IMG/VR virus record: IMGVR_UViG_3300045988_000721
Span: 1 to 5,726 of that record
Strand: one strand, 5' to 3'
DNA from: a virus
Length of the DNA: 5,726 nucleotides
Below, piece by piece: positions 423-5,618 of the stretch. Within the stretch, counting starts at the first letter, position 1, and each line of letters starts with the position of its first letter. A model generated the notes under the pieces. It was not told the DNA's origin. It ran no database searches and was given only the letters and a program-made list of their open reading frames with translations. The translations under genes were made by a program, and so were the position numbers.

Positions 423-815
423 TTACACCCCCTTTCTGTATTTTGTGTTGCGGGTATCAAAGTGCACCCACGATTTATAGACGATGATGCCGCAAGAATT
501 CGGTGCCAGCTTGTCAAGCTCTTTTGCTACCTCCTTCGGCGCCATGTCTTTTACGATGATATCAGCCGCCATGCCGCGCATGTGGAAGCTGTATTTTGCT
601 CCGCCTACTTTTTTGTTATGCTCTGGTGTTCTGTAGCCGCTTGTTATAATAACTGGCTTTTTGATTGTTTCGCGTAGGATGTCTAGTAGGATTGCTAGAT
701 ACTCATCTACAAAGACAATTGGTGACCCATCTTTACACGCGAATTCTTTTACTTTGAAGTGTTTTGTGATTTTGATTTCTGCTTGTTCGTCTAATATATA
801 CGCTTTAATTTCCAT
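423..815 (-). CDS. Zinc D-Ala-D-Ala carboxypeptidase-like cell-wall peptidase, Peptidase_M15_3 / M15A family. Candidate endolysin or peptidoglycan-remodelling enzyme.
   Basis: 130 aa. The N-terminal F-x-x-x-EF-x-C motif (HFKVKEFACKDG) is present. SGYRTPEHNKKVGG is followed by SFH-MRGMAA-D, which gives the zinc triad H78-x6-D85 plus H118 in WVHFD, and all three are intact. Strong RBS aagaggt at 823-829, 7 nt before the ATG. A sigma70-type promoter lies immediately upstream. Confidence 0.85.
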   Translation of the reverse strand: MEIKAYILDEQAEIKITKHFKVKEFACKDGSPIVFVDEYLAILLDILRETIKKPVIITSGYRTPEHNKKVGGAKYSFHMRGMAADIIVKDMAPKEVAKELDKLAPNSCGIIVYKSWVHFDTRNTKYRKGV

Positions 816-836
816 GGCTGTTTACCTCTTTTTTGT

Positions 837-865
837 ATTCTATCATATAATCGCCGAATTTTCAA
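837..865 (-). promoter_or_regulatory. Sigma70-type promoter reading into the peptidase gene and plausibly the whole gene ring.
   Basis: On the minus strand: TTGAAA (865-860), a 17-nt spacer, then TG-a-TAGAAT (extended -10 at 845-837). An RBS follows at about 823-829 and the ATG at 815. Confidence 0.6.
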
Positions 866-922
866 GGGTTGCGTTAGCAACTTTTGGAATTTCGGCGGTT
901 TCGCCGTTAGGCGTTTTCAACA

Positions 923-931
923 TTTTCCACA
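923..931 (+). promoter_or_regulatory. DnaA-box-like 9-mer TTTTCCACA, fitting the relaxed consensus TTWTNCACA.
   Basis: Direct read of 923-931. It sits in the first unit of the tandem repeat. Confidence 0.35.
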
Positions 932-942
932 TAGTTTTCAAC

Positions 943-951
943 TTTTCCACA
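943..951 (+). promoter_or_regulatory. Second DnaA-box-like 9-mer TTTTCCACA, same orientation, 20 nt from the first.
   Basis: Direct read of 943-951. It sits in the second unit of the tandem repeat. Confidence 0.35.
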
Positions 952-1019
952 TTGTTAAACTTTAGCACAATAGAGCGTTTCAACAATTCAACAAGTTTTT
1001 AACATTTCTTTTAACAATA

Positions 1020-1038
1020 GTTTCTTTCATAAAGAAAC
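1020..1038. repeat. AT-rich perfect inverted repeat GTTTCTTT-cat-AAAGAAAC (8-bp arms, 3-nt spacer).
   Basis: I paired 1020-1027 with 1031-1038 base by base. Possible operator or protein-binding palindrome. Confidence 0.6.
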
Positions 1039-1114
1039 GTTATTGCGTTATTTTTTAATGGTTTTCAACTTTTTAACTACCTCTACTACTACGGCTACAA
1101 CAAGTTAATAAATA

Positions 1115-1162
1115 TATGCGCGTGCGTGCGTGCGCGTTTACGCGCGCGTATGCGTGCGCATA
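1115..1162. other. Long hairpin with a 22-bp stem and TTTA loop, built from two perfect alternating purine-pyrimidine tracts (1112-1137 and 1140-1163). Z-DNA-prone.
   Basis: Pairing 1115-1136 with 1141-1162 gives 17 Watson-Crick pairs plus 5 G-T pairs on the window plus strand. Those 5 positions become A-C mismatches on the minus strand. Confidence 0.7.
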
Positions 1163-1185
1163 CCTTTGAGCGCTTTAGCGCGAAC

Positions 1186-1240
1186 CGGTGTCCGCGCGAT
1201 TTCAGCGCGGTCAGCGGCTGATCAGTCAGCCGCGACACCG
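1186..1240. other. Compact three-way junction: a closing 7-bp helix enclosing two GC-rich hairpins.
   Basis: P1 is cggtgtc 1186-1192 paired with gacaccg 1234-1240. Hairpin A is cgcgc 1193-1197 / gcgcg 1205-1209 with a 7-nt loop. Hairpin B is gcggctga 1214-1221 / tcagccgc 1226-1233 with a 4-nt loop. All pairs are Watson-Crick. Confidence 0.6.
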
Positions 1241-1253
1241 TGCCAATAGGGGG

Positions 1254-1286
1254 TACGGGGGACGCGAGCGGAACGCGGCCCCCGTA
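1254..1286. other. GC-rich hairpin with 8 + 4 bp separated by one A/G mismatch and a 7-nt loop. On the plus strand it is followed by a T-rich tract, so it is terminator-like in plus orientation only.
   Basis: tacggggg 1254-1261 pairs with cccccgta 1279-1286, and cgcg 1263-1266 with cgcg 1274-1277. Downstream on the plus strand is tttcttgataattttaat. Downstream on the minus strand is ccccctattgg, which has no U-tract. Confidence 0.55.
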
Positions 1287-1341
1287 TTTCTTGATAATTT
1301 TAATCACTGAATAGGCTGATACATGGAGCCTTTAAACGGCT

Positions 1342-1377
1342 CTAGCCCAGTACCTTACTTGATAGGTACTGGGCTAG
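1342..1377. other. Perfect 14-bp hairpin with an 8-nt loop (plus TACTTGAT, minus ATCAAGTA), 15 nt downstream of the VP4 stop. Candidate origin or single-strand initiation structure, or an RNA 3'-end element.
   Basis: ctagcccagtacct 1342-1355 pairs perfectly with aggtactgggctag 1364-1377. There is no U-tract on either side, so it is not a canonical intrinsic terminator. Confidence 0.7.
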
Positions 1378-1391
1378 GTGACACCAAAATC

Positions 1392-2414
1392 TTATAAACC
1401 GCCCTTTTGGAGCTTTACAGACTTTTTGACAACTCTTTCTTTTGTCTTTAAATCCTCTGCGAAATCTGCATTTTTATACTTGAGTCGGTTTTGTTCGATT
1501 ATTGCTTTCTGCCTGTTTCTTTTGATTCTCCATAATCGTTCTGGGTTTTCTGCTTCCATCATTTTTTCATAGTATCGCGGAATTTGTGCTTGTTTCCCGT
1601 TGGTGCACTGAATATATCCTTTTTTCCAGATTTCTTCTTTGTGTTCTTGGTAATAAGTATCGCCAAGTCCTGGCTTTAGGCTCATACATGCAAATGGTTT
1701 TTGCTGGCCTAGCTCGTAGTATTGATTAGCTTTTTTTCCGTCAATTTCGTACATTTTTTTTGTAACATAGCCTGCAACATATCTATAGGTCTGTGGTGTT
1801 GCTTGTGCTATCTGTATTTGACCCATTTTCCATAGATTGCACATCCATTCACTTGTGTAATATCCGTTATGCCTTATTTTATAGATTTGTTTTAGGTCTG
1901 TTGGTTTCCATCCATATAAAATCATATGGTAGTGCGGTCTTGCTGTCTGTTCTCCGTACTCTCCTGCACAGAAATAGCGTAGTTGGCCCTTGTAAGCCTT
2001 CCTGAGACGTTTTAAGAACTTTTGTATATCCGGATATAGCAATGTTTGTACGCTCTCTGGTGCCTTTTCTCCCGGCTTCCAGACGTATTGAACTTTACGC
2101 ATGATTTCTCCTGTTTTAATTATCATTCCCGGTACATGGTCATCATCATAAGTTAGTGTGATAAACCACACTTCTTCTTTCGGCCATGCTCTGGCTTCTA
2201 GCTCTATTCGTGTTGTCCAGTCCTCTCTCTGTCGGATTCTGCATCCAATGCATTTCCCACATGGTATTAACATTACTTTTGGGTTGTACATCAAATCTTC
2301 ATATTTCATCTGTTTCCCGGCTAACTCAGAAAAGCGGGCAAGTGACATCACTCGCCCGCTTATTTCTTTGTTTTCCGGGTTGTACAGTCTTATAAGTGGC
2401 TTGTAACAACTCAT
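1392..2414 (-). CDS. VP4: Replication initiation protein VP4, an HUH rolling-circle endonuclease of the Microviridae gene A/VP4 type.
   Basis: 340 aa. It has the N-terminal CGKCIGCR zinc-finger-like motif, RCR motif 1 FITLTYD, the HUH motif in RPHYHMILYG and the two-tyrosine motif 3 YRYVAGYVTKK. Its ATG overlaps the VP2 TGA as ATGA (2411-2414). Confidence 0.93.
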   Translation of the reverse strand: MSCYKPLIRLYNPENKEISGRVMSLARFSELAGKQMKYEDLMYNPKVMLIPCGKCIGCRIRQREDWTTRIELEARAWPKEEVWFITLTYDDDHVPGMIIKTGEIMRKVQYVWKPGEKAPESVQTLLYPDIQKFLKRLRKAYKGQLRYFCAGEYGEQTARPHYHMILYGWKPTDLKQIYKIRHNGYYTSEWMCNLWKMGQIQIAQATPQTYRYVAGYVTKKMYEIDGKKANQYYELGQQKPFACMSLKPGLGDTYYQEHKEEIWKKGYIQCTNGKQAQIPRYYEKMMEAENPERLWRIKRNRQKAIIEQNRLKYKNADFAEDLKTKERVVKKSVKLQKGGL

Positions 2415-3265
2415 CTTAAATAGTCACCTGGCTTTTTCTTTTCGCCGTAATCTCCCGTTTTGTTTTGCGGTTTTGTAAATTCTTGCTTTCTGCCCTGTTT
2501 TGGCGTTGCTTTTTCGACTGCTTCTTCGGTTGCCTTGTCGGTTTTATCTCCGATTTCTGTTAGCGCTTTTTGCATTCCGTAAGGTGTCAAGTGCGTTTCG
2601 CTTAGCATTTGTTGCCAGCTTTGCGCCGCGTTGTACCAATCTGATGTGCTCCAACTGCTGCTACTGTATGCGTTTGGCACAAATCCTCCACTTCTGCTTA
2701 CCCCTAATGCGCTACTACTTGCAAGCCCTATACTTGCACCGCTAATTGTCCCGGCGCTACCTCCGGGTGTGCTCGCGCCCCCGTTTGCGAATGCTAGTAT
2801 AGGATTGATTCCTGCTTTTTTCATGTCTTCTACGGCTCTTTGATAGGCCGTGCTTGACATTCTTTCTTGCCATTCCCTGTTTTTCATGGCTTCGGTGCTG
2901 TTAAAATTCATTGCTGCCGTGTTTTCGATGTGGTTATAAATGCCTTGTGCAATTGCACTTAAGGTGTTATATCCCATTTGTTTTAACATGGAGCCGCTAT
3001 TGAATTGACTTTGCCTTTCTGCTTCCCCTGCTTGGTATTGATATGCACCTTCCAGCCATTTTTGCACCTGCTCGATGTTCGTTCCTGCTTGGCTTCCGCT
3101 TTGTGAATGTCCTCCGCCTTGGCTTACGCTGCCGCCTTGGCTTTGTGAATTTCCTGTCTGTCCCCATCCGCCGAATGCTCCGCCTATGTTTTTTACTGCT
3201 CCTGCAATGCTTCCTATTGCGTTGGCTCCTGCGCCAACCATTGACATAATGGTTAATGGATCCAT
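2411..3265 (-). CDS. VP2: Minor capsid / DNA pilot protein VP2.
   Basis: 284 aa. The N-terminus is hydrophobic and Gly/Ala-rich (MSMVGAGANAIGSIAGAV), followed by a Gly/Ser/Gln low-complexity tract. The central motif STAYQRAVEDMKKAGINPILA is characteristic of gokushovirus VP2. The gene sits directly after VP1. Confidence 0.85.
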   Translation of the reverse strand: MDPLTIMSMVGAGANAIGSIAGAVKNIGGAFGGWGQTGNSQSQGGSVSQGGGHSQSGSQAGTNIEQVQKWLEGAYQYQAGEAERQSQFNSGSMLKQMGYNTLSAIAQGIYNHIENTAAMNFNSTEAMKNREWQERMSSTAYQRAVEDMKKAGINPILAFANGGASTPGGSAGTISGASIGLASSSALGVSRSGGFVPNAYSSSSWSTSDWYNAAQSWQQMLSETHLTPYGMQKALTEIGDKTDKATEEAVEKATPKQGRKQEFTKPQNKTGDYGEKKKPGDYLR

Positions 3266-3303: not shown

Positions 3304-4989
3304 TTACAGCTTATACAGGCCCGGCACGCTATACAACGGCATCCGTCTTGTGGTTTTGTTTGCCACTCGCACGGCTCCGAAAAATTGCGGTTCGCTCTGC
3401 ACGATTAGTGTTCTTGCAATCTCTTCTTTGCCCTCTGCCATCCATTCTTGACTGAGTGTTGGCACAGCGTTGTAGTTGTCGGCGTAGTGCCAGAAATCTA
3501 ACGTCCCGTTTGCGTTGCTTCTCATGAGGCCAGATACTCGGTTTGGCTTCATGCGGTAGTCTGCCCATGCTTCCTGATAGCCGAATGTCTCTTCGTCAGT
3601 TGCTTCACCGGTTAGCATGATTTCTTTCTTCTTTACTGGCTGTTCGCCGAGATTTGCAAACTGTGGTACATAGTAGTCTAGCCTGTCGCGTCTGCTCCAG
3701 AATCGTTCCAATCCCTGCTGGTAACTGCGGTTGTGTCGTACACACGCAACACCGATTACAAACCCGTGCTCTTCAAAACTCTTTGTGAAGGAGCTTTCTC
3801 TGATAGGTGTTACGGATATTGCACCGGTTTCACCGATGGGTGTATCGTTTTCCGTCTGCTGGCCGCTGGTCTGTACAATCTGGTTTACGTTGACTTGGTA
3901 TCTGCCGCCTCCCAGATATTCCGGAATTTGTACGGTTTTATCACTGATTGTCACATCCCATAATGCGCGTACCTGTTCGCGGTACCGGCTGCCACCTCTG
4001 GCCAATGCTTCATAGTACTGCTGCACTGCTACGGCCTGTCTTAAGTCGTTGATTGTTGTTGCTGTTACGTTGCTCAGGTCTGCCGCTATTCTTTCGCCTG
4101 CTTTTGCGCCGCTGCTGATATATCCCAAAACTGCACGCGCTTTTTCATCTGTATTATTGTAATTTTGGGTCATCATTTGAGTTACTGAATGGTGCAGGTA
4201 CCCGGCTTCATTTGTCCAAGTTCCGTTGTTTTTAAGGTCTTGAATCGTTAATGGGTTGTCTTTTGCGTCTGCCCAATATATTGGTGCATTTCCGGTCATT
4301 GGCATCGTAATTTCCGGCCCACGCTGTGGGTAAGGCATACAGGATGTGAAGTAGTCGTGGTATTTGTTTACCGGAAGCAGATTCCCACCTAGTACTGCGT
4401 TTTGCAGGTCGGTTTCCAGTGTTTCCGTTTTTTCTGGCGTAAATTTGTATGTCACGTCTGCGTCGTCGCTTTTTAACACTGCCATGTTTTCCACGTTTTC
4501 ATCTCTAAAAAATTCGTTCCAGATTTTGACATATGCCCTGATTGGTAATGCGTTGATGCTGAATGGTTTTTTGATTTTCGTAGGCACACCCATGTAGTCC
4601 AAAATGGACTTTTCATTAGGTGCCGGGTTTGGTGTTGACGCATTGATTTTAATCTGTGGTACTGCGTATTCCTTGGTAGGCATCCATGGTGTTTCTTCAA
4701 CCTCACCCATGAAATGTCTGAAGTTATCCCACAAGATTCTGTTTGGCGTGTAGAAGTAGTAGAAATCAATGAATGCATCATCCATGACCGGATATTTCGG
4801 TGTGCTCATACGGATAATTGCCGTTGTGTCTACTTGGAAAGTGTCTCCCGGTAATACTTCGTCTACGAAAAATGGAATTAGTTTGCCGGAATCAAATGTG
4901 GTCAAGATAGTCTGGTCTCTGTTGAATCTTGTTCGGCTTGCGTGCATTTCCGGAATCTGAAGGAAATGTCTTTCATTATTTCTGTTCAT
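3304..4989 (-). CDS. VP1: Major capsid protein VP1 (Microviridae F-protein family, gokushovirus-type).
   Basis: 561 aa. The N-terminus is typical of the family (SRTRFNRDQTILTTFDSGKLIPFFVDEVLPGDTF) and the length fits gokushovirus VP1. Strong SD ggagga 5-10 nt upstream of the ATG. The start overlaps the VP3 end by 14 nt. Confidence 0.95.
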   Translation of the reverse strand: MNRNNERHFLQIPEMHASRTRFNRDQTILTTFDSGKLIPFFVDEVLPGDTFQVDTTAIIRMSTPKYPVMDDAFIDFYYFYTPNRILWDNFRHFMGEVEETPWMPTKEYAVPQIKINASTPNPAPNEKSILDYMGVPTKIKKPFSINALPIRAYVKIWNEFFRDENVENMAVLKSDDADVTYKFTPEKTETLETDLQNAVLGGNLLPVNKYHDYFTSCMPYPQRGPEITMPMTGNAPIYWADAKDNPLTIQDLKNNGTWTNEAGYLHHSVTQMMTQNYNNTDEKARAVLGYISSGAKAGERIAADLSNVTATTINDLRQAVAVQQYYEALARGGSRYREQVRALWDVTISDKTVQIPEYLGGGRYQVNVNQIVQTSGQQTENDTPIGETGAISVTPIRESSFTKSFEEHGFVIGVACVRHNRSYQQGLERFWSRRDRLDYYVPQFANLGEQPVKKKEIMLTGEATDEETFGYQEAWADYRMKPNRVSGLMRSNANGTLDFWHYADNYNAVPTLSQEWMAEGKEEIARTLIVQSEPQFFGAVRVANKTTRRMPLYSVPGLYKL

Positions 4990-5386
4990 TTGCTTCCTCC
5001 TTCTGCACCTTTTCTTGTGCGGCTTCCTGTGCCTTTTTCAGCTCTTCCAGCTTCATGGCTTTTACTTGTGCCGTTGCCATCATCTGGTGATACTCGTGTA
5101 TGTTCTGTGGCCATCCGGTAATATCCGTGATAGGCGTTTCTTTCTTGGATAGTGCTCCCTGTGACAGACTTGCCATAAAGGCTGGATCGAAACTCGCTTT
5201 CTTCACGATGTTTTTGATGTCACATTCGTCCGAATAGCTTTCAATTTCTGCTTGCACGTCAATACTCTCGGTTTCCTGTAGGTACTCTTTGCCGTTCTTG
5301 TCCTTTGCCCAGATGTATTGTTTTCGTTCGTTTTTGCCCGGTTCAGAAAAGAGGGGCTTTCGCCCCTCCTCATATCGTTTATTCAT
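4976..5386 (-). CDS. VP3: Internal scaffolding protein VP3.
   Basis: 136 aa, located directly upstream of VP1. It contains DECDIKNIVKK, matching the conserved ECDINNI(V/L)KK-type motif I recall from gokushovirus VP3, and an acidic/Lys-rich helical C-terminus. SD GGAGGG lies 9 nt upstream. It overlaps the VP5-like stop by 8 nt (ATGAATAA). Confidence 0.8.
   Translation of the reverse strand: MNKRYEEGRKPLFSEPGKNERKQYIWAKDKNGKEYLQETESIDVQAEIESYSDECDIKNIVKKASFDPAFMASLSQGALSKKETPITDITGWPQNIHEYHQMMATAQVKAMKLEELKKAQEAAQEKVQKEEANEQK
5345..5368 (-). terminator. Terminator-like hairpin located inside the first 42 nt of the VP3 coding sequence: 7-bp GC stem, GAAA tetraloop, TTTTCT tail.
   Basis: In minus sense: GAGGGGC-GAAA-GCCCCTC-TTTTCT. 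The stem pairs 5351-5357 with 5362-5368. It encodes EEGRKPLFS. Its function is uncertain and could be an attenuator, an RNA stability element or a translational pause. Confidence 0.3.
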
Positions 5387-5618
5387 TCGGTTTGCCCTCC
5401 CATACCTTTTCCTTGTCGTTCTGGAAGTTGCCCTGTTCGTCCTCGAAATCAGCCAGTTTGTAGCCGGTGTAGTCCTGCGGGCTCTGCCCGATGAAGGTCT
5501 TCTCGTCTTTTGCCATTACGTTGCACATGCGTGCAAAGGTCGCGTTGTTTTTGCTTTCGCCTACCCATGCATAGCACTTTGCTACGTTGTCCCAGATACC
5601 ATAATAGGAATGAATCAT
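5379..5618 (-). CDS. VP5: Small non-structural protein, VP5-like (gokushovirus ORF5 family).
   Basis: 79 aa. The pattern Y-x-I-x-D-x-x-A-x-x-Y ... A-R-M, followed by P-x-D-Y-x-x-Y-x-L-x-x-F-(E/D)-x-x-x-G, fits my recollection of the VP5 family. The position immediately upstream of VP3 is as expected. RBS aaagga lies about 9 nt upstream. Confidence 0.6.
   Translation of the reverse strand: MIHSYYGIWDNVAKCYAWVGESKNNATFARMCNVMAKDEKTFIGQSPQDYTGYKLADFEDEQGNFQNDKEKVWEGKPNE

Follow-up and report, generated by a model that had tools for sequence, protein, structure and literature searches.

Modular intergenic region of a gut gokushovirus: a probable replication-control region that shares its hairpin module with Rep_1 plasmid-like elements

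The gut gokushovirus genome IMGVR_UViG_3300045988_000721 was analyzed over a window of 5,726 nucleotides (nt), consisting of a circle of 5671 nt and a terminal redundancy of 55 nt. All long open reading frames (ORFs) are located on the minus strand, and a non-coding gap (positions 816-1391) lies between the stop codon of the replication initiator gene rep (VP4; stop at 1392-1394, minus strand) and a peptidase M15 gene. This gap is probably a composite replication-control region assembled from exchangeable modules, the individual roles of which we infer from their structure and conservation. It carries signals of the origin type, as had been expected for this location in the initial annotation. 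The kind of region is known, and what is new is the particular module, its sharing with plasmid-like elements that encode a replication protein of the Rep_1 family, and its inverted orientation relative to the genes. Gokushoviruses are among the most abundant single-stranded DNA (ssDNA) phages of the human gut, and neither of their replication origins is mapped in the literature searched. The gap supplies testable candidates, namely, a pan-gokushovirus nick hairpin with the loop ACTTGAT, a slot of covarying priming hairpins, and an AT-rich unit that is independent of orientation.

The plan of the gap is shared across the clade. In a BLASTN search of GenBank phages, 64 records of gokushoviruses from gut samples (human, pig, monkey, and others) match the AT-rich half and the last 70 nt of the gap but skip the middle of the GC-rich island. 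A 27-nt pattern from the gap (exact, with one N) retrieved 57 IMG/VR contigs, and a 14-nt loop pattern retrieved many more. In plus-strand order, the shared plan comprises a promoter, an AT-rich repeat array with a 27-nt block, a (GY)n palindrome, a variable slot, a hairpin whose loop contains CTTGATA, then GTGACACC and the stop codon of rep. Among relatives, the terminal hairpin lies 65 to 271 nt from the block, with the window at the long end, because the slot is either empty or filled by one of several unrelated GC-rich hairpin cassettes. The gap had initially been regarded as oversized and its division into AT-rich and GC-rich halves as anomalous. However, relatives have 488 to 756 nt between the same two genes (peptidase and VP4), and both the size and the bipartition are the norm in about 90 related gut gokushoviruses. 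Within the sublineage, the gap is 92 to 94% identical and the adjacent rep is 91 to 93% identical, both above the value for VP1. In the same genomes (L017, L030, L048, and others), VP1 is 82 to 89% identical, and its median nucleotide distance across the set is 30%. A conserved gap and rep beside a divergent VP1 is compatible with rapid evolution of the capsid as well as with recombination of replication modules with structural ones.

The terminal hairpin (1342..1377, plus strand) has a perfect 14-bp stem and the loop TACTTGAT, and the motif CTTGATA (1358-1364) extends from the loop onto the first base of the stem. The hairpin is followed by a conserved tail, GTGACACCAAAATC (1378..1391, plus strand), which abuts the rep stop codon, and is linked to the cassette upstream by a small hairpin, GAGCC-TTTAAAC-GGCTC (1326..1342, plus strand). 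Among 49 distinct versions of the terminal hairpin, inner pairs 5 to 7 do not vary, 42 have the loop (T)ACTTGAT and the others variants of it, and pairs 8 to 12 covary (e.g., CG/AT/TA and GC/CG/AT). The CTTGATA core of the loop is identical in the origins of phage phiX174 and plasmid pC194. The phiX174 record gives the origin as CAACTTGATATTAATAAC (also given as CAACTTGATATT), with the nick annotated after the G, and the pC194 origin is printed as TTCTTATCTTGATAATAAGG (PMC7072734). Double-strand origins (dso) of the phiX174/pC194 type combine the core CTTG/ATA with an initiator of the HUH-tyrosine type, and both are present in the window, with CTTGATA at 1358-1364 and 1290-1296 and a Rep that carries HYH and YVAGYVTKK. 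From these likenesses, the terminal hairpin is most likely the putative site of Rep nicking, i.e., a candidate dso. The literature searched contains no functional assignment for this hairpin, including its Chp2 and SpV4 versions.

Related hairpins are found well outside the gut clade. In Chp2 (L094, 2905-2950), the spacer between VP3 and ORF8 reads CTAGCGTATAACAG-TCTACTTGAT-CTGTTATACGCTAG-GTGATAGC, with a perfect 14-bp stem followed by GTGA, and its sequence makes it a clear homolog of 1342-1381 in the window. SpV4 (L096, about 512-544) has a looser match, a hairpin with the loop ATTACTTGTTATA, and the loops of both of these cultured gokushoviruses carry ACTTG(A/T)T on the coding strand. Three GC-richer environmental microviruses (L158, L163, and L201) have CAGTACC...TACTTGATAGGTACTG...GTGACAC. 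The tail at 1378-1391 is common to these three and to the plasmid-like contigs L070 and L071 described below, is partly shared with Chp2 (CTAGGTGA), and may be a segment bound by Rep. Judging from these matches, the terminal hairpin is older than the clade. Unlike the window, Chp2, SpV4, L158, L163, and L201 have no (GY)n palindrome, cassette slot, or repeat array. A search for relatives of the L163 Rep by back-translation returned L163 itself alone. In other microvirus clades (roodoodoo- and reekeekeeviruses), compensated intergenic hairpins beside rep have been tied tentatively to second-strand initiation, and a phiX174-like need for a hairpin signal in second-strand synthesis has been described (PMC9865509).

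The GC-rich half of the gap had been described as almost entirely self-complementary, and this is borne out by folding. As plus-strand ssDNA, the region 1079-1391 folds at -84.8 kcal/mol (z = -8.5), and none of 100 shuffled sequences is as stable; the minus strand folds at -76.1 kcal/mol (z = -7.1). Independent support for the plus strand as the strand that folds comes from the alternating purine-pyrimidine (GY)n palindrome (1115..1162, plus strand), which forms 22 uninterrupted pairs including G:T wobbles. Because the (GY)n sequence is on the plus strand, the wobbles keep all 22 pairs intact, while the coding-strand version of the hairpin is broken by A:C mismatches. The plus-strand hairpin is the more stable in 64 of 66 distinct versions with DNA parameters and in 65 of 66 with RNA parameters. 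The plus strand is the more stable in only 5 of 29 coding segments of the genome.

The variable slot between the palindrome and the terminal hairpin is filled in the window by a lineage-specific, GC-rich hairpin cassette of 166 nt (1163..1328, plus strand), with CCTTT direct repeats at 1163-1167 and 1329-1333. On the plus strand, the cassette comprises a small hairpin (1170-1181), a three-way junction (outer stem 1186-1191/1235-1240, hairpins 1192-1210 and 1214-1233), a conserved unpaired stretch, GTGCCAATAGGGGG (1241-1254), that is invariant in the alignment, a hairpin with the loop AGCGGAA (1254-1286), the pC194-like sequence TCTTGATAAT (1289-1298), which includes the second CTTGATA (1290-1296), and a recurrent AT-rich sub-module ending in CTGAATAGGCTGATACATGG (1303-1326). 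The cassette is found in L017, L030/L065, and L048 and is precisely missing from L014, the backbone of which is otherwise the same. A variant in which a simple hairpin replaces the three-way junction is present in L020, L066, and L068/L072. In an alignment of eight sequences, 95.6% of cells are paired according to the structure, 9 of 36 pairs show double compensatory changes, and none of 500 shuffles is as good, while slid controls reach 28 to 50%. In other cassette families, the stem sequence is wholly changed and the complementarity is kept (e.g., GGGGTTGACC...GGTCAACCCC versus GGGGGAGACC...GGTCTCCCCC). The unpaired segments of the cassette are conserved, which suggests recognition by a protein.

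The suspicion in the initial annotation that the GC-rich island contains something extra thus holds for the cassette, which has defined borders, covariation, and counterparts in plasmid-like elements, but not for the palindrome, which makes up about a quarter of the island, occurs clade-wide, and is not acquired. The alignment of intergenic regions of relatives proposed there showed the cassette to be an insertion or deletion with defined borders, and structural covariation among homologs was present in its stems. Neither a conserved coding frame nor a lack of covariation, the two outcomes that had been named as speaking against an extra element, was seen. The GC-rich half has no ORF with a conserved frame and no Pfam match, as the claim that it holds no credible ORF implied; a 70-amino-acid (aa) ORF (1095..1307) was rejected as coding, its frame shifting among close relatives and being broken in L030, with no Pfam match. 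The idea that the cassette moves freely among members of the clade by horizontal exchange is unsupported at this scale, with gap identity tracking rep identity. A cellular origin of the cassette was also considered and rejected. A cassette 22-mer matched one Pseudohongiella metagenome-assembled genome and two GC-rich contigs, all with dissimilar flanks, and a 15-mer cassette anchor gave chance matches only. The AT-rich sub-module (...CTGAATAGNCTGATACATGGAGCC) reads on the minus strand (1324..1304) as a mini-ORF, ATG TAT CAG CCT ATT CAG TGA (MYQPIQ*), with the variants MYQTIQSIK*, MYRFIQSIK*, MYQSIQ*, and MYQSRQ* in relatives. It may encode a leader peptide or be merely a conserved DNA motif.

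The cassette 22-mer also matched two human-gut contigs of a different backbone, L070 (660-1195) and L071 (820-1400). Together with L202 and L203, these form a family of human-gut contigs of roughly 4.1 to 4.5 kb that encode a Rep_1 protein of 525 to 538 aa and two small ORFs and lack a capsid. Among the ORFs scanned in L070 and L071, Rep_1 (PF01446, the pC194/pUB110 family; E value of about 1e-49) gave the only significant Pfam or PHROG match, and these two contigs contain no other ORF of capsid size. Their Rep_1 proteins share 27 to 29% identity with Reps encoded by small plasmids of Staphylococcus and Lactiplantibacillus. The order of the module on one strand is the same as in the window, i.e., palindrome, cassette, and hairpin. 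Compared with the window, the (GY)n palindrome is 65% identical, the cassette of L070 matches at 106 of 128 positions (83%), and the hairpin GGGCACAGTACC-CAACTCGAT-AGGTACTGTGCCC followed by GGTGACACCAAAAT matches at 39 of 49 positions (80%). L202 and L203 have the same layout, and one Rep cluster represents 101 member sequences. As in the phages, the palindrome, the cassette, and the hairpin (CTNGATA) of these Rep_1 elements are antisense to their genes. In cellular genomes, the module gave only a bare 22-mer match without flank similarity. A module of about 500 nt that is common to microviruses and to Rep_1 elements with a different initiator family points to origin-module exchange or to satellite-like hitchhiking in the same hosts. 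The Rep_1 elements could be plasmids that swap origin modules with the phages or satellites that are replicated and packaged by them.

The comparison with rolling-circle plasmids bears most directly on the palindrome and cassette. Like the window, Firmicutes plasmids of the pC194/pUB110 type have the CTTGATA core, an HUH initiator, and a heavily base-paired, non-coding block on the strand that carries the core, a block that in the window appears to be strand-specific. The single-strand origin (sso) of such plasmids is their structured, host-specific, cassette-like, and strand-specific part, which works only on the displaced strand (PMC5703833, PMC4595007), and sso cassettes are exchanged among rolling-circle replicons (PMC5703833). 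One generic trait of an sso is found in the window, where the block is non-coding and under selection for intrastrand pairing (z = -8.5; 9 of 36 pairs compensated; no conserved ORF). The orientation of the module relative to the nick-type hairpin is fixed in phages and plasmid-like elements. It is chiefly on account of this likeness to the plasmid sso, and of the sharing of the module with Rep_1 elements, that the palindrome and cassette are interpreted as a candidate second-strand priming signal. Unlike the rolling-circle plasmids, the window belongs to an encapsidated microvirus with a VP4-type Rep, and its module is antisense to all genes. The textbook dso is located upstream of rep on the rep coding strand, as the Rep_1 element L204 shows.

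The window shares with phiX174 an identical 8-mer, ACTTGATA, at the nick position and a two-tyrosine motif (YVAKYVNKK in the phiX174 A protein, YVAGYVTKK in the window). It differs from phiX174, the 30-nt origin of which lies inside gene A, outside a hairpin loop, and on the coding strand. The priming (n'/PriA) hairpin of phiX174 is in the separate F-G spacer, while both proposed signals of the window would be in one 576-nt gap on the non-coding strand. The 508-nt intergenic region of the Ff phages (f1/M13) follows the last gene and contains the hairpins of the packaging signal, the minus origin, and the nicked plus origin, then an AT-rich enhancer and a promoter, and all of these f1 signals are on the coding (viral) strand. 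The layout of the window is similar, and its Rep matches 'REP_ORF2-G2P', but there is no sequence similarity, and the virion type and Rep clade differ.

The AT-rich half of the gap contains an array (902..1080) of nine TTTC(A/C)AC / TTTTAAC repeats in one orientation, the first four of which are phased at about 10 nt, with a small hairpin (902-913) and an internal inverted repeat (1000-1042) within it. The genome has 13 matches to the repeat, 9 of them within 915-1077, against 4.8 ± 2.3 in shuffled sequences, none of which (0 of 200) reaches 13. The array is kept in 60 to 61 of 62 relatives and is followed by the 27-nt block CTCTACTACTACGGCTACAACAAGTTA (1081..1107; also given as CTCTACTACTACGNCTACAACAAGTTA), which reads TAACTTGTTGTAGCCGTAGTAGTAGAG on the coding strand. 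The block is invariant among the 57 IMG/VR contigs, partly as a product of the search pattern, and is near-identical in GenBank relatives and further contigs. In L100 and L149, the array and block (about 200 nt) are inverted in place, with the promoter, palindrome, cassette, hairpin, and genes unchanged (L149, about 1343-2134, compared with L137). The inverted segment is flanked by CG-rich tracts that are self-complementary (GCGCTGTGCGCG ... TACGCGCATGTGCGCG), and repeats of the (CG)n type may thus have recombined. This inversion disfavors a strand-specific role and favors a role at the duplex level, such as protein binding, bending, or unwinding. The array and block most likely form a unit that works in either orientation, a putative protein-binding or unwinding 'enhancer' acting on duplex DNA, similar to the AT-rich enhancer beside the f1 origin. 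Two other interpretations were rejected. Although AACTTGTTGTA is similar to the loop of SpV4, the block is unlikely to be a coding-strand nick site, since it is inverted in L100 and L149 and the rest is unchanged. A cluster of DnaA boxes (TTWTNCACA) has only two matches, a number reached by 28 of 200 shuffles, and relatives carry TTTTCAACA at the homologous positions, so that the repeats follow the consensus TTTC(A/C)ACA instead of that of a DnaA box.

In the window, as in 83 relatives that were surveyed, the CTTGATA of the hairpin loop lies on the strand antisense to all genes. In phiX174, Chp2, SpV4, L158, L163, L201, and the Rep_1 element L204, it is the coding strand that carries the motif. 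The nick motif thus lies on the gene strand in phiX174, in Chp2, and in a typical Rep_1 element, while in the window the motif is on the plus strand and the genes are on the minus strand. One tentative explanation, to which we give somewhat less than even credence, is that this clade nicks, displaces, and packages the strand complementary to its mRNAs and would therefore consist of 'negative-sense' microviruses. The alternative to packaging of the non-coding strand is that the role of the hairpin tolerates inversion. Packaging of the non-coding strand is viable in principle, since a duplex is in any case required for transcription, and since phiX174 packaging is determined by the origin and not by other sequence. 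If the hairpin does set which strand is displaced, this clade would be an exception to the packaging of the coding strand that is the rule in microviruses.

Two other potential indicators of the packaged strand were uninformative. Third codon positions show an excess of T over A and of G over C on the non-coding strand, which at first seemed suggestive; phiMH2K shows the same, and the skew of L158 and L163 goes with the coding strand despite the presence of the motif there, so that base skew tracks the coding strand wherever the motif lies. Polarized substitution spectra among relatives were too saturated, with a median VP1 difference of 30%. At third codon positions of VP1, Chp2, SpV4, and phiX174 are T-rich (45 to 55% T), whereas this clade, phiMH2K, L158, and L163 are T-poor (13 to 18%) and A- and C-rich, a split that may reflect host codon usage or mutation bias. 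Across 91 gut-clade genomes, the motif strand carries 2.22 copies of CTTGATA per genome and the coding strand only 5 copies altogether (0.05 per genome), compared with a composition-based estimate of about 0.24 per genome for the coding strand. An extra CTTGATA is located about 250 to 300 nt into rep on the antisense strand in 48 of these 91 genomes. The strand counts are suggestive but confounded by composition and shared ancestry and were not relied on.

In the mechanism we propose, the plus strand would be read from the promoter region of the next operon into the phased AT-rich repeats and the 27-nt block, which would serve as a duplex-level protein-binding or unwinding 'enhancer'. The palindrome and cassette would act as the sso, their single-stranded hairpins being recognized by host RNA polymerase, primase, or a primosome, which would prime the second strand. 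The terminal hairpin would then present CTTG/ATA in its loop, followed by GTGACACC, and the VP4 Rep (HUH, two tyrosines) would nick it, starting and ending rolling-circle synthesis.

Several observations weigh against this replication reading. The proposed functional strand is antisense to the genes, which contradicts the textbook polarity of the Microviridae and would place the leading strand head-on to transcription. VP4 and Rep_1 are two Rep families with one nick hairpin, which is unusual if the hairpin is Rep-specific. Known sso classes (ssoA, ssoU, ssoT, ssoW, ssoL) gave no support, with no match in a BLASTN search of 1106-1391 against 72,556 PLSDB plasmids, and of the ssoA hallmark CS-6 (TAGCGT/A), the window has only TAGCGC (1176-1181). 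The palindrome is absent from L025, L035, and L200, which have a short unrelated hairpin instead, and the cassette is absent from many relatives, so neither is essential. Both strands of 1079-1391 fold very stably, and the wobble asymmetry of the terminal hairpin is inconsistent. A first impression of 7:1 in favor of G:T over A:C became, in the full count, 15 G:T versus 14 C:A at the loop-closing pair and three others, and the argument was withdrawn, which leaves the asymmetry of the palindrome as the only one that stands. Finally, the literature searched contains no mapped origin or nick site for any gokushovirus.

Roles in transcription would account for some of the same features. The hairpins might form a cluster of transcription terminators or insulators, or an mRNA 3' stabilizer, that ends the VP1-VP2-VP4 transcript with no part in replication. 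They are placed after the last gene of the unit and upstream of the only strong promoter, the coding-strand palindrome is followed by ATATATTTATT, and hairpin clusters can terminate transcription without a U-tract (PMC8355165). However, no intrinsic terminator was detected in 700-1500 on either strand, and with RNA parameters the mRNA-strand form of the palindrome is the less stable one in 65 of 66 versions. The loop TACTTGAT and the unpaired stretches are conserved in sequence, for which a terminator has no need, the homologous hairpin of L163 is preceded by a separate canonical terminator, and the module also occurs in plasmid-like elements. As a replacement for replication control, termination is therefore unlikely, although the two roles are not exclusive. 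A structured non-coding RNA (ncRNA) transcribed from the plus strand across the GC-rich island, which the initial annotation had raised, appears quite improbable. The advantage of the plus strand is indeed larger with RNA parameters (-143.6 versus -126.4 kcal/mol in the window and -36.9 versus -25.6 for the palindromes), the stems covary and the unpaired segments are conserved, and the hairpin at 1254-1286 is followed by TTTCTTGATAATTTT on the plus strand. Nevertheless, covariation is blind to the difference between folded ssDNA and RNA, the cassette is dispensable, and no T-tract follows any plus-strand hairpin in the minimal relatives. No plus-strand promoter was found in 700-1500, and no Rfam family came near the gathering cutoff, with the best hit, mir-1277, being spurious (31.9 bits versus 81) and all matches being look-alikes of the palindrome hairpin. 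A search of the window for tRNA and tmRNA genes found none.

The patchy presence of the cassette, its CCTTT direct-repeat borders, its occurrence in two unrelated replicon types, and the several cassette families found in one slot would also suit a selfish mobile hairpin element of the MITE (miniature inverted-repeat transposable element) or REP (repetitive extragenic palindromic) type that brings the phage no benefit. A mobile element is, however, hardly to be expected to occur just once in each genome, with an unchanging slot and orientation beside the nick-type hairpin, and with no copies found in cellular genomes beyond a bare 22-mer. The identity of the cassette also tracks the adjacent rep, and the conservation of its unpaired segments suggests recognition by a protein, which leaves this explanation with little probability. 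An assembly or chimeric artifact, for which the abrupt change in composition is the only argument, can practically be dismissed: the same junctions recur in dozens of independent contigs and in GenBank genomes from different studies, the stems carry compensatory changes, and these results already refute it. A composite replication-control region remains the preferred interpretation of the gap.

The compositional description in the initial annotation proved exact. The gap of 576 nt represents 10.2% of the 5671-nt circle, consistent with the estimate of about 10%, and is directly downstream of the Rep gene, with rep ending at 1392 and the peptidase M15 gene beginning at 815. G and C account for 42 of the 160 nt at 921-1080 (26.25%) and for 108 of the 160 nt at 1121-1280 (67.5%). 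In 160-nt segments, both the minimum (25.6%, start 914) and the maximum (68.1%, start 1124) of the G+C content of the genome are inside the gap, compared with a genome mean of 44.5% (standard deviation, 6.0) and a range of 31.9 to 56.9% outside 700-1400.

At the other end of the gap, the only promoter-like site in 700-1500 is of the sigma-70 type, TTGAAA-17 nt-TAGAAT with an extended -10 TG (837..865, minus strand; 10 of 12 consensus matches), and is predicted to drive the peptidase M15 gene, with a Shine-Dalgarno sequence, GAGG, at 828..825 (minus strand). Its -35 element is overlapped by an imperfect 24-nt inverted repeat (849..900; 79% complementary, 4-nt spacer), which could be an operator or a promoter-occluding hairpin and is found in the closest relatives but not clade-wide.

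The genes of the window, all on the minus strand, are VP5 (5618..5379), the VP3 scaffold (5386..4976), the VP1 capsid (4989..3304; PF02305, 1e-141), VP2 (3265..2411), VP4/Rep (2414..1392; 340 aa; PF23343, 'REP_ORF2-G2P', 5.6e-17), with the HUH motif RPHYHMILYG and the two-tyrosine motif YVAGYVTKK, and the peptidase M15 gene (815..423), which is the first gene past the gap. Strong Shine-Dalgarno sequences (GAGG and GGAGG) are found at 816-835, at 4981-5000, and at other gene starts. Together with the extended -10 promoter, the peptidase M15 lysis gene, and the module shared with Rep_1 plasmid-like elements, the Shine-Dalgarno sites point to a host of the Firmicutes type.

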